64,000 nt of DNA from Candidatus Multivoraceae bacterium (GCA_965219625.1 OZ244782.1:182911-246910); one strand, 5' to 3'. Shown: positions 5,405 to 54,186, counted from the stretch's first letter. A program made the numbers and translations. The notes: generated by a model from the letters alone, not told the origin.

Positions 5405-7810
5405 ATGGGCAAAATCCGCCTCCAGGACCTGGCCAAGAAGATGAACGTGGCCGAGCAGGACCTCCTGTTCAAGTTCCGGTCGATCGGCGTCCGCATCGAG
5501 GGCGACGACCCGATGGTCGACACGGACATCATCAAGGCGCTGCTCGAGGGCAAGAAGATCGCCGGGCCGCAACGGGAGGTCATCCTCCGCGACCGCGCTG
5601 CGCCGCCGGTTGCTCCCCGTCGCCGGCCAATCTCGAGCCTCCGGCCGCCTGCCGGACCCATGCGACCGAACCGAAGGCGCTCGATCGTCCACAAGCACAC
5701 GATCCGCACGCTGACCCCCACCGAGACGAAGCCGAAGCCTCCCAGCCCCGAGGAGGTCGCGGCGAAGGAGATCGCCGCCGAAGAAGCTGCCGCTGCAGCC
5801 AGTGTTCCGCAGGCGGCGGTCGAGAGCCGCGAGGCCGCAACGACGGTGGCCGCCAGGGCGCCAGCCGAAGCGCCTTCTGCCGAATCGGCGCCCGCCGTCG
5901 ACTCGGCAGCCGTCGAACCGGCGACCGCGGCGTCTGGACCATCTACCGCCCCGACCGCGCCGCCACCGGAGCCCCCCGCAGAATCAGAGCCGCCGACGGC
6001 GTCGGAAGTGACTGAGGAAGCCGCCGAGGAGTCTCGGCGCACCGTGACGGTGTCCGAGGGCATGGTCGTCCGCGACTTGGCGGAGAAGATGGACGTCAAG
6101 GCGAAGGAGCTCCTCAAGCATCTCTTCCAGCGCGGCGTGATGGCGACTGTGAACCATCCCCTGGAACCCGAGGTCGCCGTCGAGCTCGCCGAACGGATGG
6201 GCTTCGACGCCCTCATCGTCTCCTTCGAAGAGGAGATCCAGATCGAGCAGGAGGAGGAACTCGAAGCGACCGGCGAACTCGACGAGAGCCGCGAACCGGT
6301 CGAACGACCGCCGATCGTCACGATCATGGGTCACGTCGACCACGGCAAGACCTCGCTGCTCGACGCCGTCCGGAAATCCCGGCTCACCGAGGGCGAGTTC
6401 GGAGGCATCACGCAGCACATCGCCGCCTACCAGGTCGAGCAGGGCGACGGGCAGATCACGTTCCTGGACACCCCCGGCCACGAGGCGTTCACCCAATTGC
6501 GGGCGCGCGGAGCTCAGGTCACCGACATCGTCGTCCTCGTCGTCGCCGCGGACGACGGAGTCATGCCGCAGACGCTGGAAGCGCTCGACCATGCACGCGC
6601 CGCCGAGGTGCCGATCGTCGTGGCGATCAACAAGATCGATCGACCGAACGCGAACGTGGACCGGGTCAAGCAGCAACTGGCGGACCGGGACCTGCTCGTC
6701 GAGGATTGGGGAGGCGACGTGGTCGCGGTGCCGGTTTCCGCGATCAAGGGCGACGGAATCGACGACCTGCTCGAGATGCTGACGTTGACCGCCGAAGTGG
6801 CCGAACTGAAGGCCAGCCCTGAACTGCCGGCGCAGGGCGTCGTCATCGAAGCCAGGAAGGAGACGGGTCGCGGCGCCGTAGCCACGGTGCTGGTACAGAA
6901 CGGCGCGCTGCGGTTGGGCGACGTGTTCGTCTGCGGCTCGGCGTGGGGCCGGGTCCGCTCGCTGATGAACGATCTGGGCCAACGCGTCGAGCAAGCCCTG
7001 CCTTCGACGCCGGTCGAAGTCGCAGGCTTCAACGAACTCCCTGAAGCCGGCGACTCGTTTCAGGTCACGGCAAAGGAGTCGAAGGCCCGCTCCATCGCCA
7101 AGTTCCGCAGCGACGAGAAACGTCGCGTTGACCTCGCTCCCAGCACCGGCGGTGTCTCCTTGGAGAGCCTGTTCGCCAGCCTGAAGGAGGGCGAAGTCAA
7201 GGAGCTGCCCGTCATCCTGAAGGCCGACGTACAGGGTTCGGTCGAGGTGCTGCGGGACACGCTGCAGAAAGTCTCGACCGAGAAGGTCAGGGTACGAGTC
7301 ATCCGCTCTGCAGTCGGCGCCGTGACGAGTCACGACGTGCTGCTCGCCTCCGCAGCCGGCGCGATCATCTACGGATTCAACGTCCGGCCGGAGCGAAGCG
7401 CCACCGAACTCGCCGGGAAGGAGGACGTCGAGATCCGCCTGCATACGGTGATCTACGAGCTGACCGAAGAGCTGATCGCGGCGATGACCGGGTTGCTCGA
7501 ACCGACCTACCGCGAGGTGTCGACGGGTCGCGCCGAGGTGCGCGAGGTGTACAAGGTGCCGAAGGTCGGCTTGGTCGCGGGTTGCCACGTGATCGCCGGC
7601 GTCATCTCGCGTAGCGCTCAGATTCGACTCGTACGCGACAGCGTCGTCGTCCACGAGGGCCGAATCGGTTCGCTGCGGCGCTTCAAGGACGACACCGCAG
7701 AGGTGCGCAGCGGTTTCGACTGCGGCATCGGCATCGAGCGCTTTCAGGACGTGAAGAAGGGCGACGTGATCGAAGCCTTCGACCACGAGGCGATCGCGCC
7801 GACCCTCTGA
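5405..7810 (+). CDS. infB: Translation initiation factor IF-2
   Basis: The ATG at 5405 ([15 protein letters not shown]) is in frame within track ORF 5309..7810. A Pro/Ala-rich linker precedes the GTPase domain with [20 protein letters not shown] and NKID. Confidence 0.95.
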
Positions 7811-7815
7811 CCGGC

Positions 7816-8151
7816 GTGCCAGCCTCCTCGCCATCCCGCGCCGCCGACCTGCTGCGGCGCGAGCTGACGGATATTCTGCGCCGTGAGGTCCAGGATCCCC
7901 GCGCCCGGCTCGCGAGCATCGCCGAACTCTCGTTGAGTGCCGACAGCTCCCACGCGCATGTGGAGATTTCCGTGCTGGGCGCTGAGAAGGACCGAATCGC
8001 GGCGATTCGCGCGCTCCGCCGCGCGGCCTCGTACATCCGGGGAAGAGTGGGTCGTCGGCTCCACCTCAAGCGGACACCGGAACTCCACTTCGAGCTCTAC
8101 CGGGGCGCCGAGCACGCTGAACGCATCGACCAACTCCTGAGCGAATCGTGA
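7816..8151 (+). CDS. rbfA: Ribosome-binding factor A
   Basis: 111 aa with a GTG start. The RbfA-like sequence includes LRRELTDILRREVQDPR and RTPELHFELY. The gene follows infB, as in many bacteria. Confidence 0.85.
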   Translation: MPASSPSRAADLLRRELTDILRREVQDPRARLASIAELSLSADSSHAHVEISVLGAEKDRIAAIRALRRAASYIRGRVGRRLHLKRTPELHFELYRGAEHAERIDQLLSES

Positions 8152-41835: not shown

Positions 41836-43683
41836 TCACCCTTCCGGTGGAGAAACTCCCTGCTCGGGATACACCCCGCTGCCGCCAGCCTCGATGTACT
41901 TCGTCCAGAAGTTCGGAGGCCACGGCAGAACCAGCCAGTCCGCGAAGCCTTCGACGAAGGTCGGCAACGGCCCCCTGCAGTCCCGCTCCACGTTCGCCGC
42001 CCACTCGGGCTTGCACTCAAGCGTCGGACCGCCGCCAAGGGAACGCGTCACGGCGTCCGGGTCGTCGCGAACGCCCGGCGCAGCCTCTCGCGCCGCTCGG
42101 ACCGCCTCGACCTGCACGTCGTATCGATCCGCCGGCACGATCCTCCCGCCGTCCGTGGACCGGCCGACGCAGACCCTCTGCTCGCCCGCCGGAAGGTCCC
42201 GTTCCCACGAGTACGTCTCCGGCACGCCGGTCACCGAGAGCCCCGTCCGCTCGGTCACCGAGAACCTGACCCGCTGCGCGGTCGCCAACGTGAAGTCGTG
42301 ACAGGGCTCGGCGGGCGCGTCGTCCACCTTGAGCTCCACCAGGGCGCCCGCATTCTGCGGCAGTCGGGCGGCGGCGGAAACCGTCGCCGCGTCGGACGCG
42401 GTCGCGGACGGCCTCGAGCCAGCGTCCACGCCAGGCGCGTTGTGGACCGTCAGCAGGCTCGGCATCGGCGTCATGTCGAGGATCCGAGCGCAGCGGTCGA
42501 GCGTGCCGTCGACCATGCAGCGCTCGAGGACGAGCGCCTTCGTGCCGTTCGGGCTGACGTGGAAGAGGCCGGGAGACGCAGACTGGTAGAGGGCGAACAA
42601 CGTGCCTTCATGCCAGCCCGTAGAGCGCTCGATCAAGCCAGCTGGCGCAAGGGGATCGCGCCAGATGTAGTCGATTCGGTACTGCCCGTCCCGCGTCGCC
42701 AAACCGACGAGGCCACGCGTGCGCGGCCGGAGTCCACCGTCGTAGACCTCCCACCCCTCCACCTGCCAATACGGTTCCGTCGGCGGACCGGAGAGGCCGA
42801 GATCCGGAAGGTGGTAGGCACGGAGCTCGCCGCTCTTCGTCTCGCTGCTCTTCGTCGCCGACCAGAGGACGTGAGCCGCCCCTTGCCAGCCGAACTCCCA
42901 CTCGTCGTCTCCCGGAAAGAGCTCGAAGGGATGGCTCGCCTCGTCGTCCTCATCAATGTGGACCGTGTAGACGTGGAAGTCTCCGTCATCACTTTCGGCC
43001 CATGGAAGTTGAAGGACGGGACCCTCGGAATCCAACAAGCTGAACCAATAGGCCGGCTCCGGCTCATCCCAGGGACCGTAGGTCCCGGGTTCGTCAAAAT
43101 GAACGGCGACCCGCCGTTTGACGACCGCTTTCCTGGACGTGAAGTCGCCGAGCCTGATCTCCACGCGGTCGAAGAGCGGATGATCCACGTCGCCGGACTC
43201 CCGTTCGGCCACCGCCCAGACCTCGCCGTCTGGAGACACCTCGAAGGCTGCCTCTGCCAAGTTGGGCCATTCCCTGTTGTCCCAACTCCACACCTGCTTC
43301 ACGTCGCCGCCGGGAAGGATCTCGATGACCTCCTCCGTCCAGGCGCCGTAGCCTCCGTTATCCAAGGGCCCCTTGACGCTCGTCAGCCAAATGCGCCCGT
43401 TCCTCAGCTTCCGCATCCGTCGCACACGGGTCTCCGGCAATTCGACCGCGTCGAGGAGCGAGCCGTCCGCCCCAAGCCGCAGGAAGAACGAACCCTCCGC
43501 GATCACATCATCGAAGATCTGCCCCGCTCCAAAGACAGGTCGAAACAGCAGGACAGCCCGCCCGTCGTCCTCGATGTAACCCGACACGTACTCAGCCTCG
43601 GGCAGTACGAGTCCCTCGTCAGCGAGCAACGGAGCCGCCGCAAGGCAGCAACACAAGTACATCCAGCACGTCCGCTTCGTCAT
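41836..43683 (-). CDS. Array paralog 1: signal-peptide protein of the unnamed ~420-aa family, fused at its C-terminus to a ~200-aa copy of the peptidase middle module
   Basis: The ATG is at 43683 (MTKRTCWMYLCCCLAAAPLLADEG). Residues up to ...ARILDMTPMPSLLT align with paralogs 2-4. The part encoded by 41836..~42448 (EPCHDFTLATAQRVRFSVTERTGLSVTG...PADRYDVQVEA...PWPPNFW) aligns with the region around aa 495-640 of the 848-aa peptidase ORF. Confidence 0.8.
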   Translation of the reverse strand: MTKRTCWMYLCCCLAAAPLLADEGLVLPEAEYVSGYIEDDGRAVLLFRPVFGAGQIFDDVIAEGSFFLRLGADGSLLDAVELPETRVRRMRKLRNGRIWLTSVKGPLDNGGYGAWTEEVIEILPGGDVKQVWSWDNREWPNLAEAAFEVSPDGEVWAVAERESGDVDHPLFDRVEIRLGDFTSRKAVVKRRVAVHFDEPGTYGPWDEPEPAYWFSLLDSEGPVLQLPWAESDDGDFHVYTVHIDEDDEASHPFELFPGDDEWEFGWQGAAHVLWSATKSSETKSGELRAYHLPDLGLSGPPTEPYWQVEGWEVYDGGLRPRTRGLVGLATRDGQYRIDYIWRDPLAPAGLIERSTGWHEGTLFALYQSASPGLFHVSPNGTKALVLERCMVDGTLDRCARILDMTPMPSLLTVHNAPGVDAGSRPSATASDAATVSAAARLPQNAGALVELKVDDAPAEPCHDFTLATAQRVRFSVTERTGLSVTGVPETYSWERDLPAGEQRVCVGRSTDGGRIVPADRYDVQVEAVRAAREAAPGVRDDPDAVTRSLGGGPTLECKPEWAANVERDCRGPLPTFVEGFADWLVLPWPPNFWTKYIEAGGSGVYPEQGVSPPEG

Positions 43684-43910
43684 CTCGTCACCCCCCACTC
43701 CTCGCAACTGTCCGGTTCCGGCCCGAACGTCCAGCGTGCCCCCTCCGCTGCCCCCTCGCGGCCCGAGCAGAAGAGCGAGGTCAACCGCTTCCTGCCCTCG
43801 TCAGTGGTAGAGCCAAGCTCGTTGCTGCCCAAGCGAAGAGGATCTCGACGCACGTTGCAGGCTGCACCGTACCAGCCGTTGAACGGCCGAGGAGTGAACG
43901 CGGCGCCCAA
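43680..43910 (-). pseudogene. Relic 1 of an M23-peptidase gene 3' end
   Basis: The 76-aa ORF ends ...EGARWTFGPEPDSCEE. The usual stop has mutated to Trp, so it runs into the paralog 1 start. FNGWYG...WTFGPEP-SCEE aligns with FIGFYG...WTFGPEPNSCEE at the end of the intact peptidase, but the HxH catalytic motif is missing. Confidence 0.55.
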
Positions 43911-43950
43911 GGCCTGGGACGCCTCGAGCCTCTTCGATCTCCAGGGACGC

Positions 43951-45185
43951 CTATTCTCCGTCGCCGGACTCGCTTGAACTCGTCAGCAGGCTCGGCATCG
44001 GCGTCATGTCGAGGATCCGAGCGCAGCGGTCGACCATGCAGCGCTCAAGGACGAGCGCCTTCGTGCCGTTCGGCTGACGTGGAAGAGACCGGGAGACGCA
44101 GACTGGTAGAGGCCGAACAACGTGCCTTCATGCCAGCCCGTAGAGCGCTCGATCAAGCCAGCTGGCGCAAGGGGATCGCGGACAATGTGATCGATCCGAT
44201 ACTGACCGCCTCGTAACGCGACTCCCTTGAGTCCGCGGTCAGAGCTCGGCCACAACCAGTCGTATTCGTTGTCTTTCTCGACGGCCCAGAACGGCGTCGT
44301 GGGATCGCCCGAAAGACCCAGGTCGGGAAGATGATACGCCCTCAGCTGACTGTTCGTTTCCGACCACAGAACCCGCTCCGCCACCTGCCAACTTCTAACC
44401 CCTTCACCCCTTCCCGGAAACACCTCGAACCGGTAACTCACCTCGTCTTCCTCGCCAATGTGGACGGTGTAGAGACGACCGTCGCCGCTAGCACTATCGA
44501 CCCACGGAAGTTGCACGACGGGACCGTCGGAATCCAACAAGCGAAACCAATAGGCTGGATCCGGCTCATCCCAAGGCCCATAGGTCCCCGGCTCGTCGAA
44601 GTGAACGGTGATCCTCCGCCTGACGTCCGCCTTGCTGGACGCGAAGTCTCCAAGCTCGATCTCCACCCGGTCGAAGAGTGGATTCTCGAGTTCGCCGGAT
44701 TCCCGTTCGGCTACCGCCCAGGCCTCGCCGTCTGGAGACACTTCGAAAGCCGCATCTATCAAGGCGGGCCATTCCCTGGTGTCCCAGCTCCAGATCTGCT
44801 TCACGTCGCCGCCGGGGAGGATCTCGATGACCTCCTCCGTCCAGGCGCCGTAGCCTCCGTTATCCAAGGGCCCCTTGACGCTCGTCAGCCAGATGCGCCC
44901 GTTCTCGAGCTTCCTCATCCGTCGCACACGGGTCTCCGGCAATTCGACCGCGTCGAGGAACGAGCCGTCCGCCCCAAGCCGCAGGAAGAACGAACCCTCC
45001 GCGATCACATCATCGAAGATCTGCCCCGCTCCAAAGACAGGTCGAAACAGCAGGACAGCCCGCCCGTCGTCCTCGATGTAACCCGACACGTACTCAGCCT
45101 CGGGCAGTACGAGTCCCTCGTCAGCGAGCAACGGAGCCGCCGCAAGGCAGCAACACAAGTACATCCAGCACGTCCGCTTCGTCAT
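43951..45185 (-). pseudogene. Array paralog 2: frameshifted C-terminus (open frame only 44004..45185)
   Basis: The N-terminal ~130 aa are nearly identical to paralog 1. Relative to the other copies, one G is missing from a GGG run (about 44072) and a 12-bp in-frame segment is missing (about 44031). The last 26 codons are therefore out of frame. The ancestral stop (cta) is still visible at 43951-43953. Confidence 0.6.
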
Positions 45186-45200
45186 TGTCTCAGGTCCTCC

Positions 45201-45416
45201 TCACTCCTCGCAGCTGTTCGGTTCCGGCCCGAACGTCCAGCGTGCCCCCTCCGCTGCCCCCTCGCGGCCCGAGCAGAAGAGCGAGGTCAACCGCTTCCTG
45301 CCCTCGTCAGTGGCAAGGCCAAGCTCGTTGCTGCCCAAGCGAAGAGGATCTCGACGCACGTTGCAGGCTGCACCGTACCAGCCGTTGAACGGCCGAGGGA
45401 TGAACGCGGCGCCCAA
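45201..45416 (-). pseudogene. Relic 2 of an M23-peptidase gene 3' end
   Basis: The 71-aa ORF reads MGAAFIPRPFNGWYGAACNVRRDPLRLGSNELGLATDEGRKRLTSLFCSGREGAAEGARWTFGPEPNSCEE. The alignment argument is the same as for relic 1. Confidence 0.55.
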
Positions 45417-45456
45417 GGCCTGGGACGCCTCGAGCCTCTTCGATCTCCAGGGACGT

Positions 45457-46719
45457 CTATTCTCCGTCGCCGGACTCGCTTGAACTCGTCAGCAGGCTCG
45501 GCATCGGCGTCATGTCGAGGATCCGAGCGCAGCGGTCGAGCGTGCCGTCGACCATGCAGCGCTCGAGGACGAGCGCCTTCGTGCCGTTCGGGCTGACGTG
45601 GAAGAGGCCGTTCTCCGCCCGATAGATCGTGAACAGGACCCCATCCTGCCATCCGGTCGAACGCTCGACGAGGGCCGATGGCGCCAACGGATCCCGCCAG
45701 ATGTAGTCGATTCGGTACTGCCCGTCCCGCGTCGCCAAACCGACGAGGCCACGCACCCGCGGCCAGAGGCGGCCGTCGTAGGCCTCCCTCCCCTCCACCT
45801 GCCAATACGATTCCGTCGGTAGGCCGGAAAGGCCGAGATCCGGAAGGTGGTAGGCACGGAGCTCGCCGCTCTTCGTCTCGCCGCTCTTCGCCGCCGACCA
45901 GACGACACGATCGGCACCCTGCCAGCTGAACTGCCCCTCGTCGTCTCCCGGGAACAGCTCGAAGAAGTGGCTCGCTTCACCGTCTTCATTGATGTGGACC
46001 GTGTAGACGTGGATTTCGCCGTCATCGCCGTCGACCCAGGGAAGTTGCAGGACGGGACCTTCGGAAGCCAACCAGACAAACCAATAGAGCGGATTCCCCT
46101 CATCCCAAGGTCCATAGGTCCCCGGCTCGTCGAAGTGAACGGTGATCCTCCGTTTGACGTCCGCCTTGCTGGACGCGAAGTCGCCGAGCTTGATCTCCAC
46201 CCGGTCGAAGAGCGGAATCTCGACCTTGGCAGACCCCCGTTCGGCTACCGCCCAGGCCTCGCCGTCCGGCGACACGTTGAAGGCTGCGTCTATCAAGGCG
46301 GGCCATTCCCTGGTGTCCCAGCTCCAGATCTGCTTCACTTCGCCGCCGGGAAGGACCTCGATGACCTCCTCCGTCCAGGCGCCGTAGCCGGCGTCATCCA
46401 AGGGCCCTTTGACGCTCGTCAGCCAGATGCGCCCGTTCCTCAGCTTCCACATCCGTCGCGCTTCCGTATCCGGCAACTCGACCGTGTCGAGGAGCGAACC
46501 GTCCGCCCCAAGCCGCAGGAAGAACGAACCCTCCGCAAGGAAATCATCGAAGACCTGCCCCGGCCGGAGGACCGGTCGAAACAGCAGAACAGCCCGCCCG
46601 TCGTCCTCGATATAACCGTCGACGTACTCGCTACGCGGAAGGGTGACCCCGCCGGCGCCGAACAGGACGCCGACCGACGCAAGGCAGAAGAGGTACGTCC
46701 AACACGTCCGCTTGGTCAT
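45457..46719 (-). CDS. Array paralog 3: secreted protein of the unnamed ~420-aa family
   Basis: 420 aa with the signal peptide MTKRTCWTYLFCLASVGVLFGAGG. SPDGE and SPNGTK motifs hint at a PD40/TolB-like beta-propeller. It is about 90% identical to paralog 4. Confidence 0.8.
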   Translation of the reverse strand: MTKRTCWTYLFCLASVGVLFGAGGVTLPRSEYVDGYIEDDGRAVLLFRPVLRPGQVFDDFLAEGSFFLRLGADGSLLDTVELPDTEARRMWKLRNGRIWLTSVKGPLDDAGYGAWTEEVIEVLPGGEVKQIWSWDTREWPALIDAAFNVSPDGEAWAVAERGSAKVEIPLFDRVEIKLGDFASSKADVKRRITVHFDEPGTYGPWDEGNPLYWFVWLASEGPVLQLPWVDGDDGEIHVYTVHINEDGEASHFFELFPGDDEGQFSWQGADRVVWSAAKSGETKSGELRAYHLPDLGLSGLPTESYWQVEGREAYDGRLWPRVRGLVGLATRDGQYRIDYIWRDPLAPSALVERSTGWQDGVLFTIYRAENGLFHVSPNGTKALVLERCMVDGTLDRCARILDMTPMPSLLTSSSESGDGE

Positions 46720-46723
46720 CTCG

Positions 46724-46945
46724 TCACCCCCTCACTCTTCGCAACTGTCCGGCTCCGGCCCGAACGTCCAGCGTGCCCCTCCGCTGCCACGTCGCGGCCG
46801 AGCAGAAGAGCGAGGTCAACCGCTTCCTGCCCTCGTCAGCGGTCAAGCCAAGCTCGTTGCTGCCCAAGCGAAGAGGACCTCGACGCACGTTGCAGGCTGC
46901 ACCGTACCAGCCGTTGAACGGCCGAGGGATGAACGCCGCGCCCAA
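46724..46945 (-). pseudogene. Relic 3 of an M23-peptidase gene 3' end (internally frameshifted)
   Basis: The start matches relics 1 and 2 (MGAAFIPRPFNGWYGAACNVRRGPLRLGSNELG). After SLFCS the frame changes and the WTFGPEPNSCEE tail is lost from this frame. Confidence 0.55.
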
Positions 46946-46985
46946 GGCCTGGGACGCCTCGAGCCTCTTCGATCTCCAGGGACGC

Positions 46986-48248
46986 CTATTCTCCGTCGCC
47001 GGACTCGCTTGAACTCGTCAGCAGGCTCGGCATCGGCGTCATGTCGAGGATCCGGGCGCAGCGGTCGAGCGTGCCGTCGACGATGCAGCGCTCGAGGACG
47101 AGCGCCTTCGTGCCGTTCGGGCTGACGTGGAAGAGCCCGTTCTCCGCCCGATAGATCGTGAACAGGACCCCATCCTGCCAACCGGTCGAACGCTCGACGA
47201 GGGCCGATGGCGCCAACGGATCCCGCCAGATGTAGTCGATTCGGTACTGCCCGTCCCGCGTCGCCAAACCGACGAGGCCACGCACCCGCGGCCAGAGGCG
47301 GCCGTCGTAGGCCTCCCTCCCCTCCACCTGCCAATACGATTCCGTCGGTAGGCCGGAGACGCCGAGATCCGGAAGGTGGTAGGCACGGAGCTCGCCGCTC
47401 TTCGTCTCGCTGCTCTTCTTCGCCGACCAGACGACACGATCCTCACCCTGCCAGCGAAGCTGCCCCTCGTCGTCTTCCGGGAACAGCTCGAAGAGGTGGC
47501 TCGCTTCGCCGTCTTCATTGATGTGGACCGTGTAGACGTGAATTTCGCCGTCATCGCTGTCGACCCAGGGAAGCTGCAGGACGGGACCTTCGGAATCCAA
47601 CAAGCGAAACCAATAGAGCGGATTCCCCTCATCCCAAGGCCCATAGGTACCCGGTTCGTCGAAGTGAACGGTGATCAGCCGTTTCACGTCCGCCTTGCTG
47701 GACGCGAAGTCGCCGAGCCTGATCTCCACCCGGTCGAAGAGCGGAATTTCGACCTCGCCGGACTCCCGTTCAGCTACCGCCCAGGCCTCGCCGTCTGGAG
47801 ACACTTCGAAGACTACCTCTGTCAAGTTGGGCCATTCCCTGTTGTCCCAGCTCCAGATCTGCTTCACGTCGCCGCCGGGAAGGATCTCGATGACCTCCTC
47901 CGTCCAGGCGCCGTAGCCGGCGTCATCCAAGGGCCCCTTGACGCTCGTCAGCCAGATGCGACCGTTCTCGAGCTTCCGCATCCGTCGCGCTTCCGTATCC
48001 GGCAACTCGACCGTGTCGAGGAGCGAACCGTCCGTCGCGAACCGCAGGAAGAACGAACCCTCCGCAAGGAAATCATCGAAGATCTGCCCCGGCCGGAGGA
48101 CCGGTCGAAACAGCAGAACAGCCCGCCCGTCGTCCTCGATGTAACCGTCGACGTACTCGCTACGAGGAAGGGTGACCCCGCCGGCGCCGAACAGGACGCC
48201 AACCGACGCAAGGCAGAACAGGTACGTCCAACACGTCCGCTTCGTCAT
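46986..48248 (-). CDS. Array paralog 4: secreted protein of the unnamed ~420-aa family, translationally coupled to the peptidase gene
   Basis: 420 aa. The ATG at 48248 lies 12 nt after the peptidase stop. The spacer reads GGGGGTGACGAG on the coding strand and is Shine-Dalgarno-like. Confidence 0.82.
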   Translation of the reverse strand: MTKRTCWTYLFCLASVGVLFGAGGVTLPRSEYVDGYIEDDGRAVLLFRPVLRPGQIFDDFLAEGSFFLRFATDGSLLDTVELPDTEARRMRKLENGRIWLTSVKGPLDDAGYGAWTEEVIEILPGGDVKQIWSWDNREWPNLTEVVFEVSPDGEAWAVAERESGEVEIPLFDRVEIRLGDFASSKADVKRLITVHFDEPGTYGPWDEGNPLYWFRLLDSEGPVLQLPWVDSDDGEIHVYTVHINEDGEASHLFELFPEDDEGQLRWQGEDRVVWSAKKSSETKSGELRAYHLPDLGVSGLPTESYWQVEGREAYDGRLWPRVRGLVGLATRDGQYRIDYIWRDPLAPSALVERSTGWQDGVLFTIYRAENGLFHVSPNGTKALVLERCIVDGTLDRCARILDMTPMPSLLTSSSESGDGE

Positions 48249-48260
48249 CTCGTCACCCCC

Positions 48261-50807
48261 TCACTCCTCGCAGCTGTTCGGTTCCGGCCCGAACGTCCAG
48301 TCGCCCGTTCCTTCCATCTCGTCCTTCCCGCCCCAGCGGGAGAGCGGGTTCAGCGGAGTCCCGTCAGCGTTCCTGAATGCCAAGTGCAGATGGGCACCGA
48401 ACACGGTCCCTGTCTTTCCGTAGAAGCCGATGAACGAACCCGCATACACCGGCCCCTCCGGGAAATCGGTCCTGACGTCGAGATGGCAGATCTGCCAGTA
48501 CTTGCCGTCCTCCACCGTGATCTTCGCCCAGTGTCCGCAACCGTAGTGGTTTCCCACATCCAGGACCTCCTCTCCAGTCTCCGGGTCTACAGTCCGAGCC
48601 CACTGATCGTGATACGTCAGCATTCCCGTCTCGGGTGAGCGGAACCAGACCGGCGTCCGCTTCGTGTTCATGTCGATACCCGAGTGGTTCCTCTTCGTGT
48701 TCTCTCCGCCCCACGCGGCGCCGAAGAGCTCGTTCTCCTTGAAGTTCCGGCTCCGGCAGTCCGTGAAGTCGGCGACATCCGCCAGATCGTCAATCAGACC
48801 GTCCTCATCCGCGTCGACGTAGTACTCGCGCTTGAAGTTCTCTGCCAGATACTCGTAGATCGGCTCCCAGTCCCACGGATAATCGTCCCAGAAATCCCTT
48901 GGCCACGGCATGTTCACGTCGTACGTGAACTCGTAGTGGTCCTCGATCACCGTGATCACCTCGTCGATGATCGGCGGCGGCGTGTCGCAGTCCGGCTGCT
49001 CGCCTCCGTCGATCGCGCACAACTCCGGACCCTCAACCTCCGCCGTCACGGAATCCGGATCCGCATCGTCCGCGGACGAAGCCTCTTGCTCGGTAGCTCC
49101 AATCGCTTCCACCTTCACGTCGTAACGGTCAGCCGGAACACGGAGCGAACTTCCGGCGTTGCGCCTCACGCACACCTTGTGCTCGCCCGCCTCGAGGTCC
49201 CGCTTCCAGGAGTACGTCCGCGGACCGCCGGTCAGCGGTAGCCCGGTCCGCTCCGTCACCGAGAACTTGACCCGCTGCGCGGACGCCAGAGTGAACCGGT
49301 GGCAAGGGTCGAGCGGCGCAGCGTCGACCACCCGGTCGACCAGAACGCCCTCGGGAAGTGCAACCTCCACTCCATGCGTCGAGCGGGCGCCGAACCAGCC
49401 GTTCGACCCCTTCCTCATCCGCAACTCGAGCTCATACGGCCCTGGGGACTCCGGCGCCGTCATGTCGACCTGGAAGGTATGCACGGCATTCGGCGCGACG
49501 GTGACCCCGGCGGGCAGCTCGACCGCCGCGATCCCCCAATCGCCCGAAACCTCGTTCAGAGCGTAGCCCCCGGAACGCGACCACGTTGTGTTCCCCATGT
49601 TCCGCACGGTCACGCTGACCTGCTCCACGCCGCCGGCGGTCATCGTGCCCGGAACCCCGCTAACCGAATCGAACGACGCGTCGTCCCGCGGCGGCAAGGT
49701 CACCGTGATCGTCTCGCTCGGACTCGCCCAGCCGAACCACTTCGTGCCCCGGAGCATCCGCCAACCGAAACCGTAGCTCCCCGCCGTCGACGGCGCCGTC
49801 ATCGTGAAGGTGAACGCATGGCTCTCGTTCGGCGCGACGCTGCCGGACAAGGCGACTTGGCGGAGCCCCCAAGGCGGCGTCGCCGCGGAGGTATGGGACC
49901 CCAGCTTGTATCCCGCGCCCGCCGTCCACGTCGTTGTGCCCGTGTTCTTCATCGTCACCGTCACCGTCTTCGTCGAACCCGCCGTCATCGACGACGGCAG
50001 GCCGGAGTACGACACGAATCTCGCCTTGTCCGCGGGCGGCGAGGTCACCGTGATCGCGCGGCTCGTACTCGCGTCGCCGAACCACGTCCCGTTTCGCCGC
50101 ATCCGCCAGCTGAAGCTGTAGCTCCCCGCCGTCGACGGCGCCTTGATCGTCAAGGTGAACACGTGGCTCCGGTTCGGCGCCACGCTCCCCGCCACCGTCT
50201 TCTCCTTCAACCCCCAGGTCGTGTTGTTCGGAGCACCCTGAGAACCCAGCTTGTAGCCCCCGCCGGCCGTCCACGTCGTCCCGCCCGTGTTCTTCATCGT
50301 CACCGTCACCGTCTTCGTCGAACCTGCCGTCATCGACGACGGCAGGCCGGCGTACGACACGAAGGACGCGCCGTCCGTCGGCGCGGACGTCACGGTGATC
50401 GTGCGGCTCGGCGTCTGCGCGCCGAACCACGGACTGCCACTGCTCGTGATCGCCGGCGGCGGATTCGGGTTCGTCGGGTCGCCGCCCGACTCGCGGAGCA
50501 TCCGCCAGCGGAAGCTGTAGTTCCCCGGTTTGCTCGGCGCCTTGATCGTCAGCTTGAACGAGTGAACGCCGTTCGGCGCGACGCTGCCCGATACCGCCTT
50601 CCGATTCAAGCCCCACGTCGTGTTGTTCACCGGAGATTGGGAACCCAGCTGGTAGCCCTTGCTCCCCGTCCATGTCGTCCCGCCCGTGTTCCGCATCCTC
50701 ACCGTGACGACCCGCGTCTCCCCCGTCCGGAGCGACGACGGCAGGCCCGTGGTCGACACGAACGCAGCGTTGTCCGAAGCCGGCGGGCGAGCCGGCGGCC
50801 GCGTCAC
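48261..50807 (-). CDS. Major (C-terminal) part of a split gene: four NBR1-type Ig-like repeats, a beta-sandwich-like module, an acidic linker and an M23 (LytM-type) metallopeptidase domain
   Basis: The repeats fit the NBR1 FW/Ig pattern (FVSYAGLPSSM..G.TKTVTVTMKNTGGTTW...AP..AGSYSFSWRM...WFG...ITVT). The M23 motifs are HSGID (HxxxD) and GAHLHLAF (HxH), encoded at about 48342-48695. This frame stays open upstream to the poly-G tract (50849), where it reads DRWFGGRSPNRTIKVT, the end of another repeat. The GTG at 50807 is therefore probably not the native start, and this part has no signal peptide. Confidence 0.85.
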   Translation of the reverse strand: MTRPPARPPASDNAAFVSTTGLPSSLRTGETRVVTVRMRNTGGTTWTGSKGYQLGSQSPVNNTTWGLNRKAVSGSVAPNGVHSFKLTIKAPSKPGNYSFRWRMLRESGGDPTNPNPPPAITSSGSPWFGAQTPSRTITVTSAPTDGASFVSYAGLPSSMTAGSTKTVTVTMKNTGGTTWTAGGGYKLGSQGAPNNTTWGLKEKTVAGSVAPNRSHVFTLTIKAPSTAGSYSFSWRMRRNGTWFGDASTSRAITVTSPPADKARFVSYSGLPSSMTAGSTKTVTVTMKNTGTTTWTAGAGYKLGSHTSAATPPWGLRQVALSGSVAPNESHAFTFTMTAPSTAGSYGFGWRMLRGTKWFGWASPSETITVTLPPRDDASFDSVSGVPGTMTAGGVEQVSVTVRNMGNTTWSRSGGYALNEVSGDWGIAAVELPAGVTVAPNAVHTFQVDMTAPESPGPYELELRMRKGSNGWFGARSTHGVEVALPEGVLVDRVVDAAPLDPCHRFTLASAQRVKFSVTERTGLPLTGGPRTYSWKRDLEAGEHKVCVRRNAGSSLRVPADRYDVKVEAIGATEQEASSADDADPDSVTAEVEGPELCAIDGGEQPDCDTPPPIIDEVITVIEDHYEFTYDVNMPWPRDFWDDYPWDWEPIYEYLAENFKREYYVDADEDGLIDDLADVADFTDCRSRNFKENELFGAAWGGENTKRNHSGIDMNTKRTPVWFRSPETGMLTYHDQWARTVDPETGEEVLDVGNHYGCGHWAKITVEDGKYWQICHLDVRTDFPEGPVYAGSFIGFYGKTGTVFGAHLHLAFRNADGTPLNPLSRWGGKDEMEGTGDWTFGPEPNSCEE

Positions 50808-51195
50808 CTTGATCGTGCGGTTCGGCGACCGACCGCCGAACCAGCGGTCACCCCCCCCCCCCGAGGATCGCGACCGGCGGATTCGGGTCGAGCGGGTCCG
50901 GCTTGAGTTCGCGGAGCATCCGCCAGCGGAAAGCGTAGGTCCCCGGCTTCTTCGGTGCGGTAATCGCCAGCTTGAACGAATGAACGCCGTTCGGCGCGAC
51001 GCTCCCCGACACCGCCTTCCGCTTCAACCCCCACGTCGTGTTGTTCGCCGGAGATTGGGAACCCAGCTGGTAGCCCTTGCTCCCCGTCCATCTCGTCGTC
51101 CCGGTGTTCCGCATCCTCACCGTGACGACCCGCGTCTCCCCCGTCTTCATCGACGACGGCAGGCCCGTGGTCGACACGAACGCAGCGTTGTCCGC
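49356..51195 (-). repeat. Five tandem intragenic domain repeats (~115-139 codons each) encoding NBR1-type Ig-like domains
   Basis: Repeats 1 and 2 recur with a 418-bp period (tcgcggagcatccgccagcgga at 50491 and 50909), which is 139 codons plus 1 nt. Repeats 3 to 5 are progressively more diverged. Confidence 0.85.
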
Positions 51196-51300
51196 CGCGC
51201 TCGCCATGCCGGCAGCAAGCGCCAAGCACGCGATGCAGAAAGTCAGACGGCAGAACGCGAGACGCCGGCACACAACACGCCCGACGGTCGAGTCGGTCAT
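50848..51300 (-). CDS. N-terminal part of the same split gene: signal peptide plus the first NBR1-type Ig-like repeat, ending in the poly-G tract
   Basis: The ATG at 51300 gives MTDSTVGRVVCRRLAFCRLTFCIACLALAAGMASA/ADNAAF. The first repeat is about 90% identical at DNA level to the second. The frame ends ...PPVAILGGGG-TGA, with the stop immediately after the G12 run. Confidence 0.8.
   Translation of the reverse strand: MTDSTVGRVVCRRLAFCRLTFCIACLALAAGMASAADNAAFVSTTGLPSSMKTGETRVVTVRMRNTGTTRWTGSKGYQLGSQSPANNTTWGLKRKAVSGSVAPNGVHSFKLAITAPKKPGTYAFRWRMLRELKPDPLDPNPPVAILGGGG
50851..50862 (-). repeat. Homopolymeric tract: 12 C on the plus strand, which is 12 G on the coding strand
   Basis: I counted this directly: a(50850), c x12 (50851-50862), g(50863). 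No other homopolymer of comparable length was noticed in the window. Confidence 0.95.
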
Positions 51301-51546
51301 CGAAGTCACGTGAAACACCGGCAACGGCATGACTGCTTGCGCCCGCCTGTTCAAGATATTGAAGGGTGATGACAATCTACAGCACATTCGCGCCGCCTTG
51401 TCAAGGTCGACCTCTGTCCGTACGGCCGATCAGGTGGCCTCCTGGGGCCGGAACCTCGCCTCGACTCCGGGCGAGGCCAGCAACCGGCCGGCTGCCAGCC
51501 GCAGGCCCGGATCCGGCTTTTCGGGGCGTTTTGCGTCTTAGTCCGT

Positions 51547-53118: not shown

Positions 53119-53313
53119 GACCTCCAGGAGGAACGTCGAGCGCCGTTCCGGCGCTGCTAGAATCCTGCGCGCACGGACGCGACGCCAGCGCTCGGCGACG
53201 CTCGGGTGCTTGACATCACGACTCTCTCGGCGGATAATATTCGGATTCCTCGATACGCAGTCCGTAGGCGGACGCCCTCTGCGACTCCGCCCCCGGATAA
53301 GGCGCCAATCGGC

Positions 53314-54186
53314 ATGCGGCCCAGGCTTCACACCATCGTATTCATCCCGCGCTCGCGGGGACGCACGCGGCAGTTTCACGTCCGCACCCGCTGGCTCTGG
53401 GCCGGAGCGCTGGGCGGCGCTCTCCTGCTCGGCGCCTCCGGCTGGATCCTCGTCTCCGAGAGCGCTGCCGTTCTCAAGGCCCGCGATCTCGCCCGGATGG
53501 AGCGCGAGAATGAAGACCTGCGCCACATGAACGAGTCCCTCGAAACCTCGGTCTCCCGACTCCAGACGGCGCTGAACGATGCCGAGGACCGCACGCGAGA
53601 CCTGGCGATCGTCGCCGGGCTCGATCAGGCGATCGGCGGCGAGCCGGAGAACCGTCTCTCCGAGAGCGGCGCCGGCGGCGGCTACTCGAGGCCGGGCGGT
53701 CACGATCTGCCCTTGCTCCAGGCGCGCGCCGGCCTGCTCGACCGCCAGCTCCAGGCGGTCGACGACGCGCTCCAGGAGCGTCGGTTGGCGCTGCGCTCCA
53801 CGCCGATGGTCTGGCCTGTTCGCGGCGTGATCAACAGCGGCTTCGGCTTCCGCCAGGATCCGATCACCGGCCAGCGATCCCGCCACCTCGGCATCGACAT
53901 TTCGGCCGAACGCGGTCAACCCGTGACGGCTACCGCCGACGGGCTCGTCGTCCGAGCGGAACGGATCGGCAACCTCGGCCGCGCCGTCTACGTCTCCCAC
54001 CGATTCGGCTACCAGACCCGCTACGGCCACATGTCGAAGATCCTCGTCGAAGAGGGCAGCGAGGTGCGTCGCGGAGACCTTCTGGGGTACGTCGGCAACT
54101 CGGGGCGGGCGACCGGCTACCACCTGCACTATGAAGTGCGGCGAAGCGGCGCCGCGCACGATCCAGTCGACTACTTGCGGGACTGA
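53314..54186 (+). CDS. M23-family murein endopeptidase (MepM/EnvC-like) with N-terminal TM anchor and coiled coil
   Basis: The ATG is at 53314 (MRPRLHTIVF). A TM segment (WLWAGALGGALLLGASGWILV) is followed by HLGIDISA (HxxxD) and TGYHLHYEV (HxH). Confidence 0.88.
   Translation: MRPRLHTIVFIPRSRGRTRQFHVRTRWLWAGALGGALLLGASGWILVSESAAVLKARDLARMERENEDLRHMNESLETSVSRLQTALNDAEDRTRDLAIVAGLDQAIGGEPENRLSESGAGGGYSRPGGHDLPLLQARAGLLDRQLQAVDDALQERRLALRSTPMVWPVRGVINSGFGFRQDPITGQRSRHLGIDISAERGQPVTATADGLVVRAERIGNLGRAVYVSHRFGYQTRYGHMSKILVEEGSEVRRGDLLGYVGNSGRATGYHLHYEVRRSGAAHDPVDYLRD

Follow-up and report, generated by a model that had tools for sequence, protein, structure and literature searches.

What are the short open reading frames (ORFs) that separate the genes of a tandem array in the genome of Candidatus Multivoraceae bacterium (GCA_965219625.1 OZ244782.1:182911-246910)? 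The array lies in a 64-kb stretch of DNA, called the window in what follows, on which all coordinates are counted unless another locus is named, and its genes are all on the minus strand. Read 5' to 3', the order is pepA, P4, relic 3, P3, relic 2, P2, relic 1 and P1, where pepA encodes a divergent M23 peptidase, P4 to P1 are paralogs encoding an exported protein that we refer to as the partner, and the relics are the short ORFs, which a preliminary description of the locus had read as decaying 3' remnants of an M23 peptidase gene (Table 1). We find that the three relic ORFs are non-genes, copies of one decayed ~190-nt 3'-terminal M23 stub, and we consider it quite probable that this non-functional peptidase stub was amplified together with the partner gene.

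The array has the properties of a tandem amplification: its units recur with a nearly constant period (1529, 1506 and 1533 nt), the same joint is found in every unit, and identity switches block by block between the copies. The spacers between the paralogs are ~300 nt long and mutually 96-98% identical (n=3), a level at which they represent one remnant amplified with the paralog rather than three remnants decaying independently, as the preliminary description had implied. Its account of the positions and frames of the relics checks out in full, including their place before the next paralog: each relic ORF starts 40 nt past the TAG of the preceding paralog, the ancestral TAG being used for P2 because P2 is frameshifted.

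The homology of the spacers to pepA is plainest at their 3' ends. Each relic closes with a tail, CTGGACGTTCGGG...GAGGAGTGA, whose 40 nt correspond to the last 13 codons of pepA and the stop; a ribosome-binding site follows in each spacer, and then the paralog start. Identity of the tail to the live gene is 40/40 in relic 2, 37/40 in relic 1 (the stop change counted) and 36/40 in relic 3, which bears out the near-identity to the live junction that had been reported, and the first 18 nt of the tail occur 4 times in the window, in every case at a peptidase/relic-partner junction. Because the hypothesis fixes where any further match should lie, we anchored nucleotide alignments at the tail and compared their scores with a null of phase-matched coding segments taken from real genes of the window. 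For the 96 nt adjoining the tail the score was 18, higher than any null segment reached (maximum 13, 0/500, z about 7), and 42/62 positions were identical to pepA in the best block; a separate, collinear segment, the GFYG block (16/19 identical), scored 13, a value reached by 4/1000 null segments, and a window-wide null for this upstream similarity gave 7/3000. Stub and pepA are 54% identical when codon-aligned and 68% identical in the best block, and the length difference between the relics and pepA falls in a loop that is also length-variable among functional relatives. Since the anchored nucleotide tests are significant, we assign the last ~190 nt of each spacer to a decayed M23 3' end (~57-63 codons). 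The first 95 nt of each spacer show no similarity to the collinear pepA segment, their score lying below the null mean.

Protein comparisons and unanchored searches give a different picture. BLOSUM62 protein shuffles of relic against pepA gave z 0.5-3.0, and the best local alignments were not collinear with the alignment that had been proposed; tblastn gave 33.9 bits for the tail by itself and 33.1 bits for the 63-aa alignment, so that nothing was gained beyond the tail. A subfamily profile hidden Markov model (HMM), built from pepA and nine relatives sharing the tail motif, scored -2 bits on the relic body, no better than shuffles; an M23 gene unrelated to pepA, at 53206-54186, is readily detected by the same model. 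Without the anchor, local nucleotide alignments to pepA were at best marginal (z 1.6 when scored +2/-3, z 2-4 when scored +1/-1), a free-end global alignment of the relic body against pepA was uninformative, and when the whole window was searched by blastn with the spacer body, the other spacers were all that matched. The similarity to the peptidase C-terminus beyond the tail that the preliminary description had drawn from translated sequence therefore stands at the nucleotide level, in the anchored tests, and fails at the protein level in shuffles, tblastn and HMM alike.

The relics bear several marks of decay. Relic 3 carries a 1-nt deletion after SLFCS; in relic 1 the TGA has become TGG, and the ORF runs on to a TGA overlapping the ATG of P1 (ATGA). 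The positions of the HxH ligands and of the upstream catalytic His read P/R/R in the relics, with SKRLE aligned to ICHLD and PLRL to HLHL, and the HxxxD region is absent. No Pfam or NCBIfam family matches the relic ORFs, even at E<=10 or E<=1. By collinear nucleotide homology, then, the relics descend from an M23 gene, and neither by profile nor by catalytic and metal-binding residues do they belong to Peptidase_M23 (PF01551). Comparison of relics 1 and 2, which differ at 8 positions, gives a similar omega (dN/dS) in three frames, with too few differences to be informative; the dN/dS check that had been proposed for the relics thus finds no frame-specific constraint at a resolution that these 8 differences limit. 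The frameshift, the lost stop, the lack of frame-specific constraint and the lack of a profile match argue that the relic ORFs are not maintained as protein genes, and on this point, as on the shift after SLFCS, the lost stop and the missing HxH ligands, our results agree with the preliminary description.

Two readings of the relics depart from that of a decayed, non-functional stub. The relic ORFs might be functional, coding for small proteins or, with more plausibility, acting as leaders whose translation would bring ribosomes to the partner start (translational coupling), the peptide sequence being irrelevant. Consistent with the latter, in 3/3 copies and in whatever frame the ORF ends 0-15 nt before the ATG of the following paralog, the ATGA overlap of relic 1 resembles the native junctions of two cassettes from other genomes (L001 and L005, described below), and the frame is open for 94 codons in 2/3 copies. 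However, no convincing ribosome-binding site was seen before the TTG starts of the relics, open frames of 82-95 codons are expected by chance at 65% GC (estimate about 0.1), one copy is frameshifted and another is without its stop, and with no frame-specific constraint among the copies and no homolog or family match we regard a function of this kind as very unlikely. Alternatively, only the 40-nt tail and the ribosome-binding site would be peptidase-derived, serving as the 5' untranslated region of the partner, and the other ~250 nt would be unrelated sequence whose M23 resemblance is due to chance. The negative pairwise and profile tests on protein, the marginal unanchored alignments and the unbiased blastn search all point in this direction, but two separate collinear segments are significant against the anchored null, and the window-wide null was seldom matched; we give this reading only slight credence.

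Is the pairing of peptidase and partner peculiar to this locus? A search of 5.8 billion proteins with the partner brought back nothing beyond the copies in the window and P0004 (32% identity), a partner profile run over the same proteins returned only those of the window, and the peptidase C-terminus found no match among them; the partner profile found no match in GTDB genomes, and none emerged from plasmid and phage searches. When GTDB genomes were scanned for the peptidase C-terminus, three Acidobacteriota loci emerged, L004, L005 and L006. In L001, a TARA contig (also L002), the P0004 gene stands directly behind a peptidase gene, stop and start overlapping, and a recombinase gene comes next; this peptidase shares 40% identity with pepA across middle domain, M23 domain and tail. 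The order in L005 is recombinase, peptidase and partner, the latter two with an ATGA overlap, and in L004 (Vicinamibacteraceae) a peptidase 3' end is followed by a partner, with a GTGA overlap, and then by a recombinase. These single cassettes in L001/L002, L004 and L005 identify peptidase and partner as a conserved two-gene module, and with their overlapping or abutting stop and start they support the earlier proposal that the ancestral unit was a peptidase plus a partner; to call the relics "direct evidence" of that ancestry, as was done, is too strong. A more distant partner homolog (25% identity) stands alone beside rsmE in L003.

The sixth locus, L006, from a Thermoanaerobaculia metagenome-assembled genome, provides a parallel to the window. 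Here a ~90-aa 5'-truncated peptidase stub, with ICHLD and HLHL intact, is directly followed by a long-form partner that carries a C-terminal peptidase-type domain, the same architecture as P1. Further on are a sulfatase gene and then, 2 kb past the partner, a complete peptidase gene representing another allele; between its second middle domain and the extension of the partner, nucleotide identity is 95%. The arrangement of a stub followed by a long partner therefore has 2 occurrences, in different lineages.

Each of the single cassettes adjoins a tyrosine recombinase/integrase gene (L001:3919-4419, L004:2115-3047 and L005:3789-4838; the Pfam match was checked for L001), which suggests that the cassette may travel on integrative elements; no relative of the L001, L004 or L005 recombinases was found in the window. 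Integron-type gene cassettes were considered for the window and rejected, since it has neither an integrase nor an attC-like fold: the spacer folds no more stably than shuffled sequences do (z -0.77). What looks like a 1-nt frameshift near ...ITVT/EEDPGDP (L005:5680-5700), where there is no long homopolymer, divides the peptidase gene of L005 into two ORFs that overlap.

The junction between peptidase and partner bears on what a duplicated partner has to carry with it. The Glu-Glu codons of the conserved ...C-E-E tail read GAGGAG in L004-L006 as they do in the window, and they lie 7-13 nt upstream of the partner start; the peptidase stop and the partner start overlap in L001, L004 and L005. 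GAGGAG is likely the Shine-Dalgarno sequence of the partner gene. The initiation signals of the partner thus appear to be embedded in the last codons of the peptidase; every working partner duplicate would then have to carry the stub tail, which would be retained in each copy as a translation signal. The spacers have no Rfam match and no promoter or terminator signal. What is conserved is an island made up of the 40-nt tail, a 12-15 nt spacer and the first ~32 nt of the partner, and it is bounded by divergence on both sides: on the left by the relic body, diverged from pepA, and on the right by the signal-peptide regions of the partners, which are diverged into an A and a B type.

With omega at 0.29-0.44, indicating purifying selection, the partner paralogs are functional genes, and they are mosaic. 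Synonymous divergence (dS) is 0.10 between P4 and P3, 0.38 between P4 and P1 and 0.73 between P4 and P2. Identity between P4 and P3, taken over successive stretches of 100 nt, is 84-100% throughout and >90% in most; P2 and P1 are identical over their first 200 nt, and the 3' end of P2 and the spacer behind it resemble those of P4 and P3. The A-type (P4/P3) and B-type (P2/P1) 5' ends are 57-59% identical over the first 100 nt, a divergence similar to that of the stub from pepA. With each of the other copies the middle block of P2 (~44195-44535) shares no more than 47-65% identity, and it appears to derive from a third, otherwise lost allele. In places the same block looks closer to distant family members, e.g. 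PFWAVEKDNEYD.

The four paralogs have in common ...CCTGCTGACG (SLLT), after which P4, P3 and P2 end with SSSESGDGE and a stop, whereas P1 continues into a long extension (41836-42447). The short C-terminus looks native compared with relatives. Within the extension, ~165 aa (41896-42387) represent, in frame, a piece of a second, diverged peptidase that takes in the middle domain and the linker up to PWPPNFW. The fragment has 46% amino acid identity to pepA over 177 aa (E 3e-38, tblastn); over 155 aligned codons the two are 53% identical in amino acids and 64% in nucleotides, and identity by codon position follows the order 2 > 1 > 3, the pattern of functional divergence. The locus has therefore contained more than one diverged peptidase gene.

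How, then, did a stub come to stand before each downstream partner? Taking together the anatomy of the array, the residual homology, the mosaicism of the paralogs and the conservation of the cassette elsewhere, we favour a history in which two or more diverged cassettes once stood in tandem, pepA with a short A-type partner and a second peptidase with the B-type long P1. A deletion would have run from just past the stop of the first partner to ~63 codons (~-190 nt) before the stop of the second peptidase. Unequal crossing-over and gene conversion between the partners would then have amplified the unit of partner, 95-nt flank and stub, giving rise to the three spacers and to hybrids like P2; gene conversion would have kept the junction (tail, ribosome-binding site and ~32 nt of partner) near-identical to the live junction, with conversion tracts ending where stub and pepA become too different. 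The loss of a full second peptidase is among the steps that we infer. An origin from a deleted allele is favoured by the second-peptidase fragment in P1, by the precedent of L006 and by the first 95 nt of the spacers, which, being without pepA homology, place the peptidase breakpoint near -190 nt and leave the partner with its native short C-terminus. For the whole of this history, the deleted second peptidase allele included, we put the chances of its being right and of its being wrong at about the same.

Several observations weigh against this history. Protein-level tests see nothing beyond the tail, and the stub is consequently too decayed to assign to a particular allele. The distance between stub and pepA (Jukes-Cantor, about 0.4-0.7) equals the dS among partners (0.38-0.73), so that an ancient partial duplication of the end of pepA would give the same figures. 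Weak periodicity of G+C at third codon positions (GC3) and an open M23 frame across the whole spacer, its first 95 nt included, fit a junction right after SLLT, such as a simple partial duplication would produce; and the partner searches (5.8 billion proteins, GTDB genomes) brought up no close relative that could show an intact second peptidase. The main rival is a partial tandem duplication, in which one illegitimate join copied pepA's own 3' end through to the end of the partner, the stub decayed neutrally, only tail and partner were kept homogenised by later amplification and gene conversion, and no second full-length peptidase ever stood at that place. Such a duplication is also the most economical account of an array with a complete upstream gene first and a different downstream continuation last; stub and pepA have diverged to the extent that the partner copies have in dS, the G+C content is highest at the third codon position of the open M23 frame, and the 5' end of the spacer, if collinear with pepA, maps to ..HW/AKIT, within a few codons of the start of the L006 stub (LARIT). 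Against it, uniform decay would not be expected to leave clear similarity in 150 nt and none in the 95 nt that precede them, the short C-terminus SSSESGDGE is native-looking by comparison with relatives, and another diverged peptidase was demonstrably once in the locus, as the P1 extension records. The GC3 signal is itself weak (estimated chi-square p about 0.1), and the data on G+C by codon position and on the open frame are too weak to separate the two models of origin. We hold a partial duplication to be possible but rather doubtful. The descent of the relics from a different peptidase allele whose body was deleted, already put forward in the preliminary description, thus stays the favoured origin on the strength of the P1 fragment, L006 and the first 95 nt, and is short of demonstration because a partial duplication fits the divergence equally well.

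The peptidase at the head of the array was earlier called intact, and as assembled it is frameshifted. Its two ORFs are put in different frames by a run of twelve G (G12), the sole homopolymer of at least 8 bases in the 64-kb window; G11 or G14 would give a single secreted protein of 1041/1042 aa, and the sequence obtained by reading through the run, DRWFGGRSPNRTIKVT, agrees with the ends of the later immunoglobulin-like (Ig-like) repeats. The split is either a slipped-strand (phase-variation) switch or a homopolymer sequencing or assembly error, two explanations that are equally simple. A 345-nt tandem repeat at 49686-50431 (2.2 copies, 79% matches) corresponds to the Ig-like (N_BRCA1_IG) repeats of pepA, and immediately beyond the G12 tract the 848-aa ORF opens with a near-duplicate of the first pepA repeat (51200-50860). 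The M23 domain shows the motifs HSGID, ICHLD and HLHL and a family-specific C-terminal tail, WTFGPEPNSCEE; with the ORF split by G12, it scores 24 bits against Peptidase_M23 (PF01551), for which the cut-off is 28.7 bits (E 4.4e-5). The tail is conserved in the subfamily as G-[FW]-[TS]-F-x(2-4)-D-P-x-x-C-E-E (window 48261-48300; L001, L004, L005 and L006; P0006-P0015), and its Cys and that of ICHLD are invariant in the subfamily alignment, pointing to a possible disulfide.

A second, conventional M23 gene (53206-54186, plus strand; 326 aa, ...GYHLHYEV), the one detected by our subfamily model, is located 2.4 kb upstream of pepA; a member of another subfamily, it has neither the C-terminal tail motif nor a partner gene. 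The G+C content of the array is 0.64-0.65 (window 44000-50000), compared with 0.68-0.70 in the flanks, a difference that is consistent with horizontal acquisition of the array. The window interval at 32-34 kb is likewise low in G+C (0.635).

Table 1. Features of the pepA-partner array, in window coordinates, and of the comparable locus L006, in its own coordinates.
Feature	Coordinates	Strand	Length	Description
pepA 5' part	50848..51387	-	179-aa ORF	Signal peptide (..LALAAGMASA/AD) and first Ig-like (N_BRCA1_IG-type) repeat; stop straight after G12
G12 homopolymer	50851..50862	-		Puts the two pepA ORFs in different frames
Main pepA ORF	48261..50807	-	848 aa	Four Ig-like repeats, weakly PPC-like middle domain, divergent M23 domain
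Live 40-nt tail	48261..48300	-	40 nt	13 codons and TGA; partner start 12 nt downstream
P4	46986..48248	-	420 aa	Signal peptide, no Pfam match, probably beta-propeller (predicted); A-type 5' end
Spacer 3	46720..47015	-		First ~95 nt are the P4 3' end (SSSESGDGE and stop) and flank without peptidase similarity
Spacer 3, peptidase-derived part	~46920 down to 46732	-		Decayed M23 3' sequence and 40-nt tail
Relic 3 ORF	46724-46945	-	73 codons	
P3	45457..46719	-	420 aa	92% identical to P4 in amino acids
Spacer 2	45186..45486	-		Peptidase-derived part ~45391 down to 45201; tail 40/40 against the live gene
Relic 2 ORF	45201-45416	-	71 codons	
P2	44004..45185	-	393 aa as ORF	3' region at 44004-44100 frameshifted by a 1-nt deletion; further 12-nt deletion
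Spacer 1	43684..43980	-		Peptidase-derived part ~43885 down to 43695; stop now TGG
Relic 1 ORF	43680-43910	-	76 codons	
P1	41836..43683	-	615 aa	Long form; paralog-like up to ...MPSLLT (42448), then extension; no M23 domain
L006 stub	5990-6279			
L006 long partner	6267-7856			
L006 extension of partner	7477-7813			
L006 full-peptidase segment	10075-10411			

What the partner may do is suggested by its predicted structure and by the company it keeps. It has no Pfam, NCBIfam or PDB sequence match of any meaning. An AlphaFold model built from 5 sequences is all-beta and of low confidence, and its Foldseek matches, all of them beta-propellers, have low TM-scores and are used here as a hint only. 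Tsi1, a partial beta-propeller, acts in the periplasm as an inhibitor of the peptidoglycan hydrolase Tse1 (PMC3391265). As with Tse1/Tsi1, a gene for a cell-wall hydrolase stands here before the gene to which it is translationally linked, one for an exported protein predicted to be all-beta and propeller-like; unlike in that pair, where Tse1 is an NlpC/P60-type amidase delivered by a type VI secretion system (T6SS), the partner is 420 aa long with a fold of low confidence, and there is no sequence relationship. The tight coupling of the partner to a secreted cell-wall hydrolase suggests that it may be a secreted or periplasmic inhibitor of the peptidase, with an immunity-like role, for which Tsi1 offers no more than an analogy. 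It counts against this assignment that it draws solely on linkage, a signal peptide and a propeller model with a predicted local distance difference test score (pLDDT) of 49.

The layout of the array, pepA-P4-stub-P3-stub-P2-stub-P1, is that of an orphan effector array. The closest published pattern comes from the displacement model for the T6SS loci of Vibrio cholerae, in which an incoming effector-immunity module replaces the effector while the old immunity gene is kept, sometimes with the 3' end of its effector, and arrays result (Kirchberger et al. 2017, PMC5361080). As in those arrays, a full effector-like gene heads a string of partners, and recombination has left mosaics (PMC5361080). 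There the immunity genes are of mixed types that came in from other strains, whereas here the partners are a single paralog family amplified in place and the three stubs are copies of one; distinct, separately acquired types are not found, and only the mosaic blocks (the B-type 5' ends and the middle of P2) point to separate alleles. Moreover, pepA has a Sec-type signal peptide, the toxin and immunity roles are putative, and no secretion-system genes were seen beside the array in the ORF list for 38-54 kb, the part of the window that was annotated.

The orphan cdiA-CT/cdiI modules of contact-dependent inhibition (CDI) systems (Poole et al. 2011, PMC3150448) and the Rhs-CT/immunity modules (Koskiniemi et al. 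2014, cited in PMC5361080) are similar in that 5'-truncated 3' fragments of a large secreted protein gene, each with its small partner gene behind it, stand in tandem downstream of the full-length gene. Those orphans keep an intact toxin-coding C-terminal region (CT) and a 5' homology patch for recombining into the main gene; the stub described here is without catalytic residues, its homology patch lies at the junction of tail and partner and not at its 5' edge, and the C-terminal half of the M23 peptidase is not hypervariable within the subfamily. From tandem segmental amplification with concerted evolution, which shares the head-to-tail period, the repeated novel joint and the mosaic blocks, the array shows no essential difference, and its mechanism is ordinary tandem amplification of that kind. 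The G12 run brings in a further likeness, to phase-variable contingency genes: it is a repeat tract inside the coding region whose length sets the frame, leaving pepA out of frame as it stands, and one base fewer or two more would restore it.

A more far-reaching interpretation, which we think unlikely, would combine these likenesses into a contingency locus for interbacterial antagonism in Acidobacteriota, with a G12-switched, Sec-secreted M23 bacteriolysin and a recombining array of diversifying genes for propeller-like inhibitors (immunity proteins), the stub being more than debris and acting as a portable adaptor (ribosome-binding site, coupling signal and homology patch) for duplicating, shuffling and exchanging cassettes. 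If this were true, the locus would be a secretion-system-independent analogue of the orphan modules of CDI, Rhs and T6SS loci, and the succession of stub and long-form partner in L006 would reflect a shared mechanism and not a coincidence.

Together, these results present the stubs as the expected footprint of cassette loss and amplification; they change no concept, and they make the history of recombination legible in a poorly studied phylum. They also draw attention to an uncharacterised module, made up of a divergent M23 peptidase with a Cys-containing tail and an exported protein of ~420 aa that belongs to no known family, which has been conserved in several lineages of Acidobacteriota and is present in a marine metagenome, and which is apparently mobile. 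If it turns out that the partner inhibits the peptidase, the array would represent the amplification of an immunity gene outside the classical contact-dependent systems, and the G12 run would be a candidate on/off switch.

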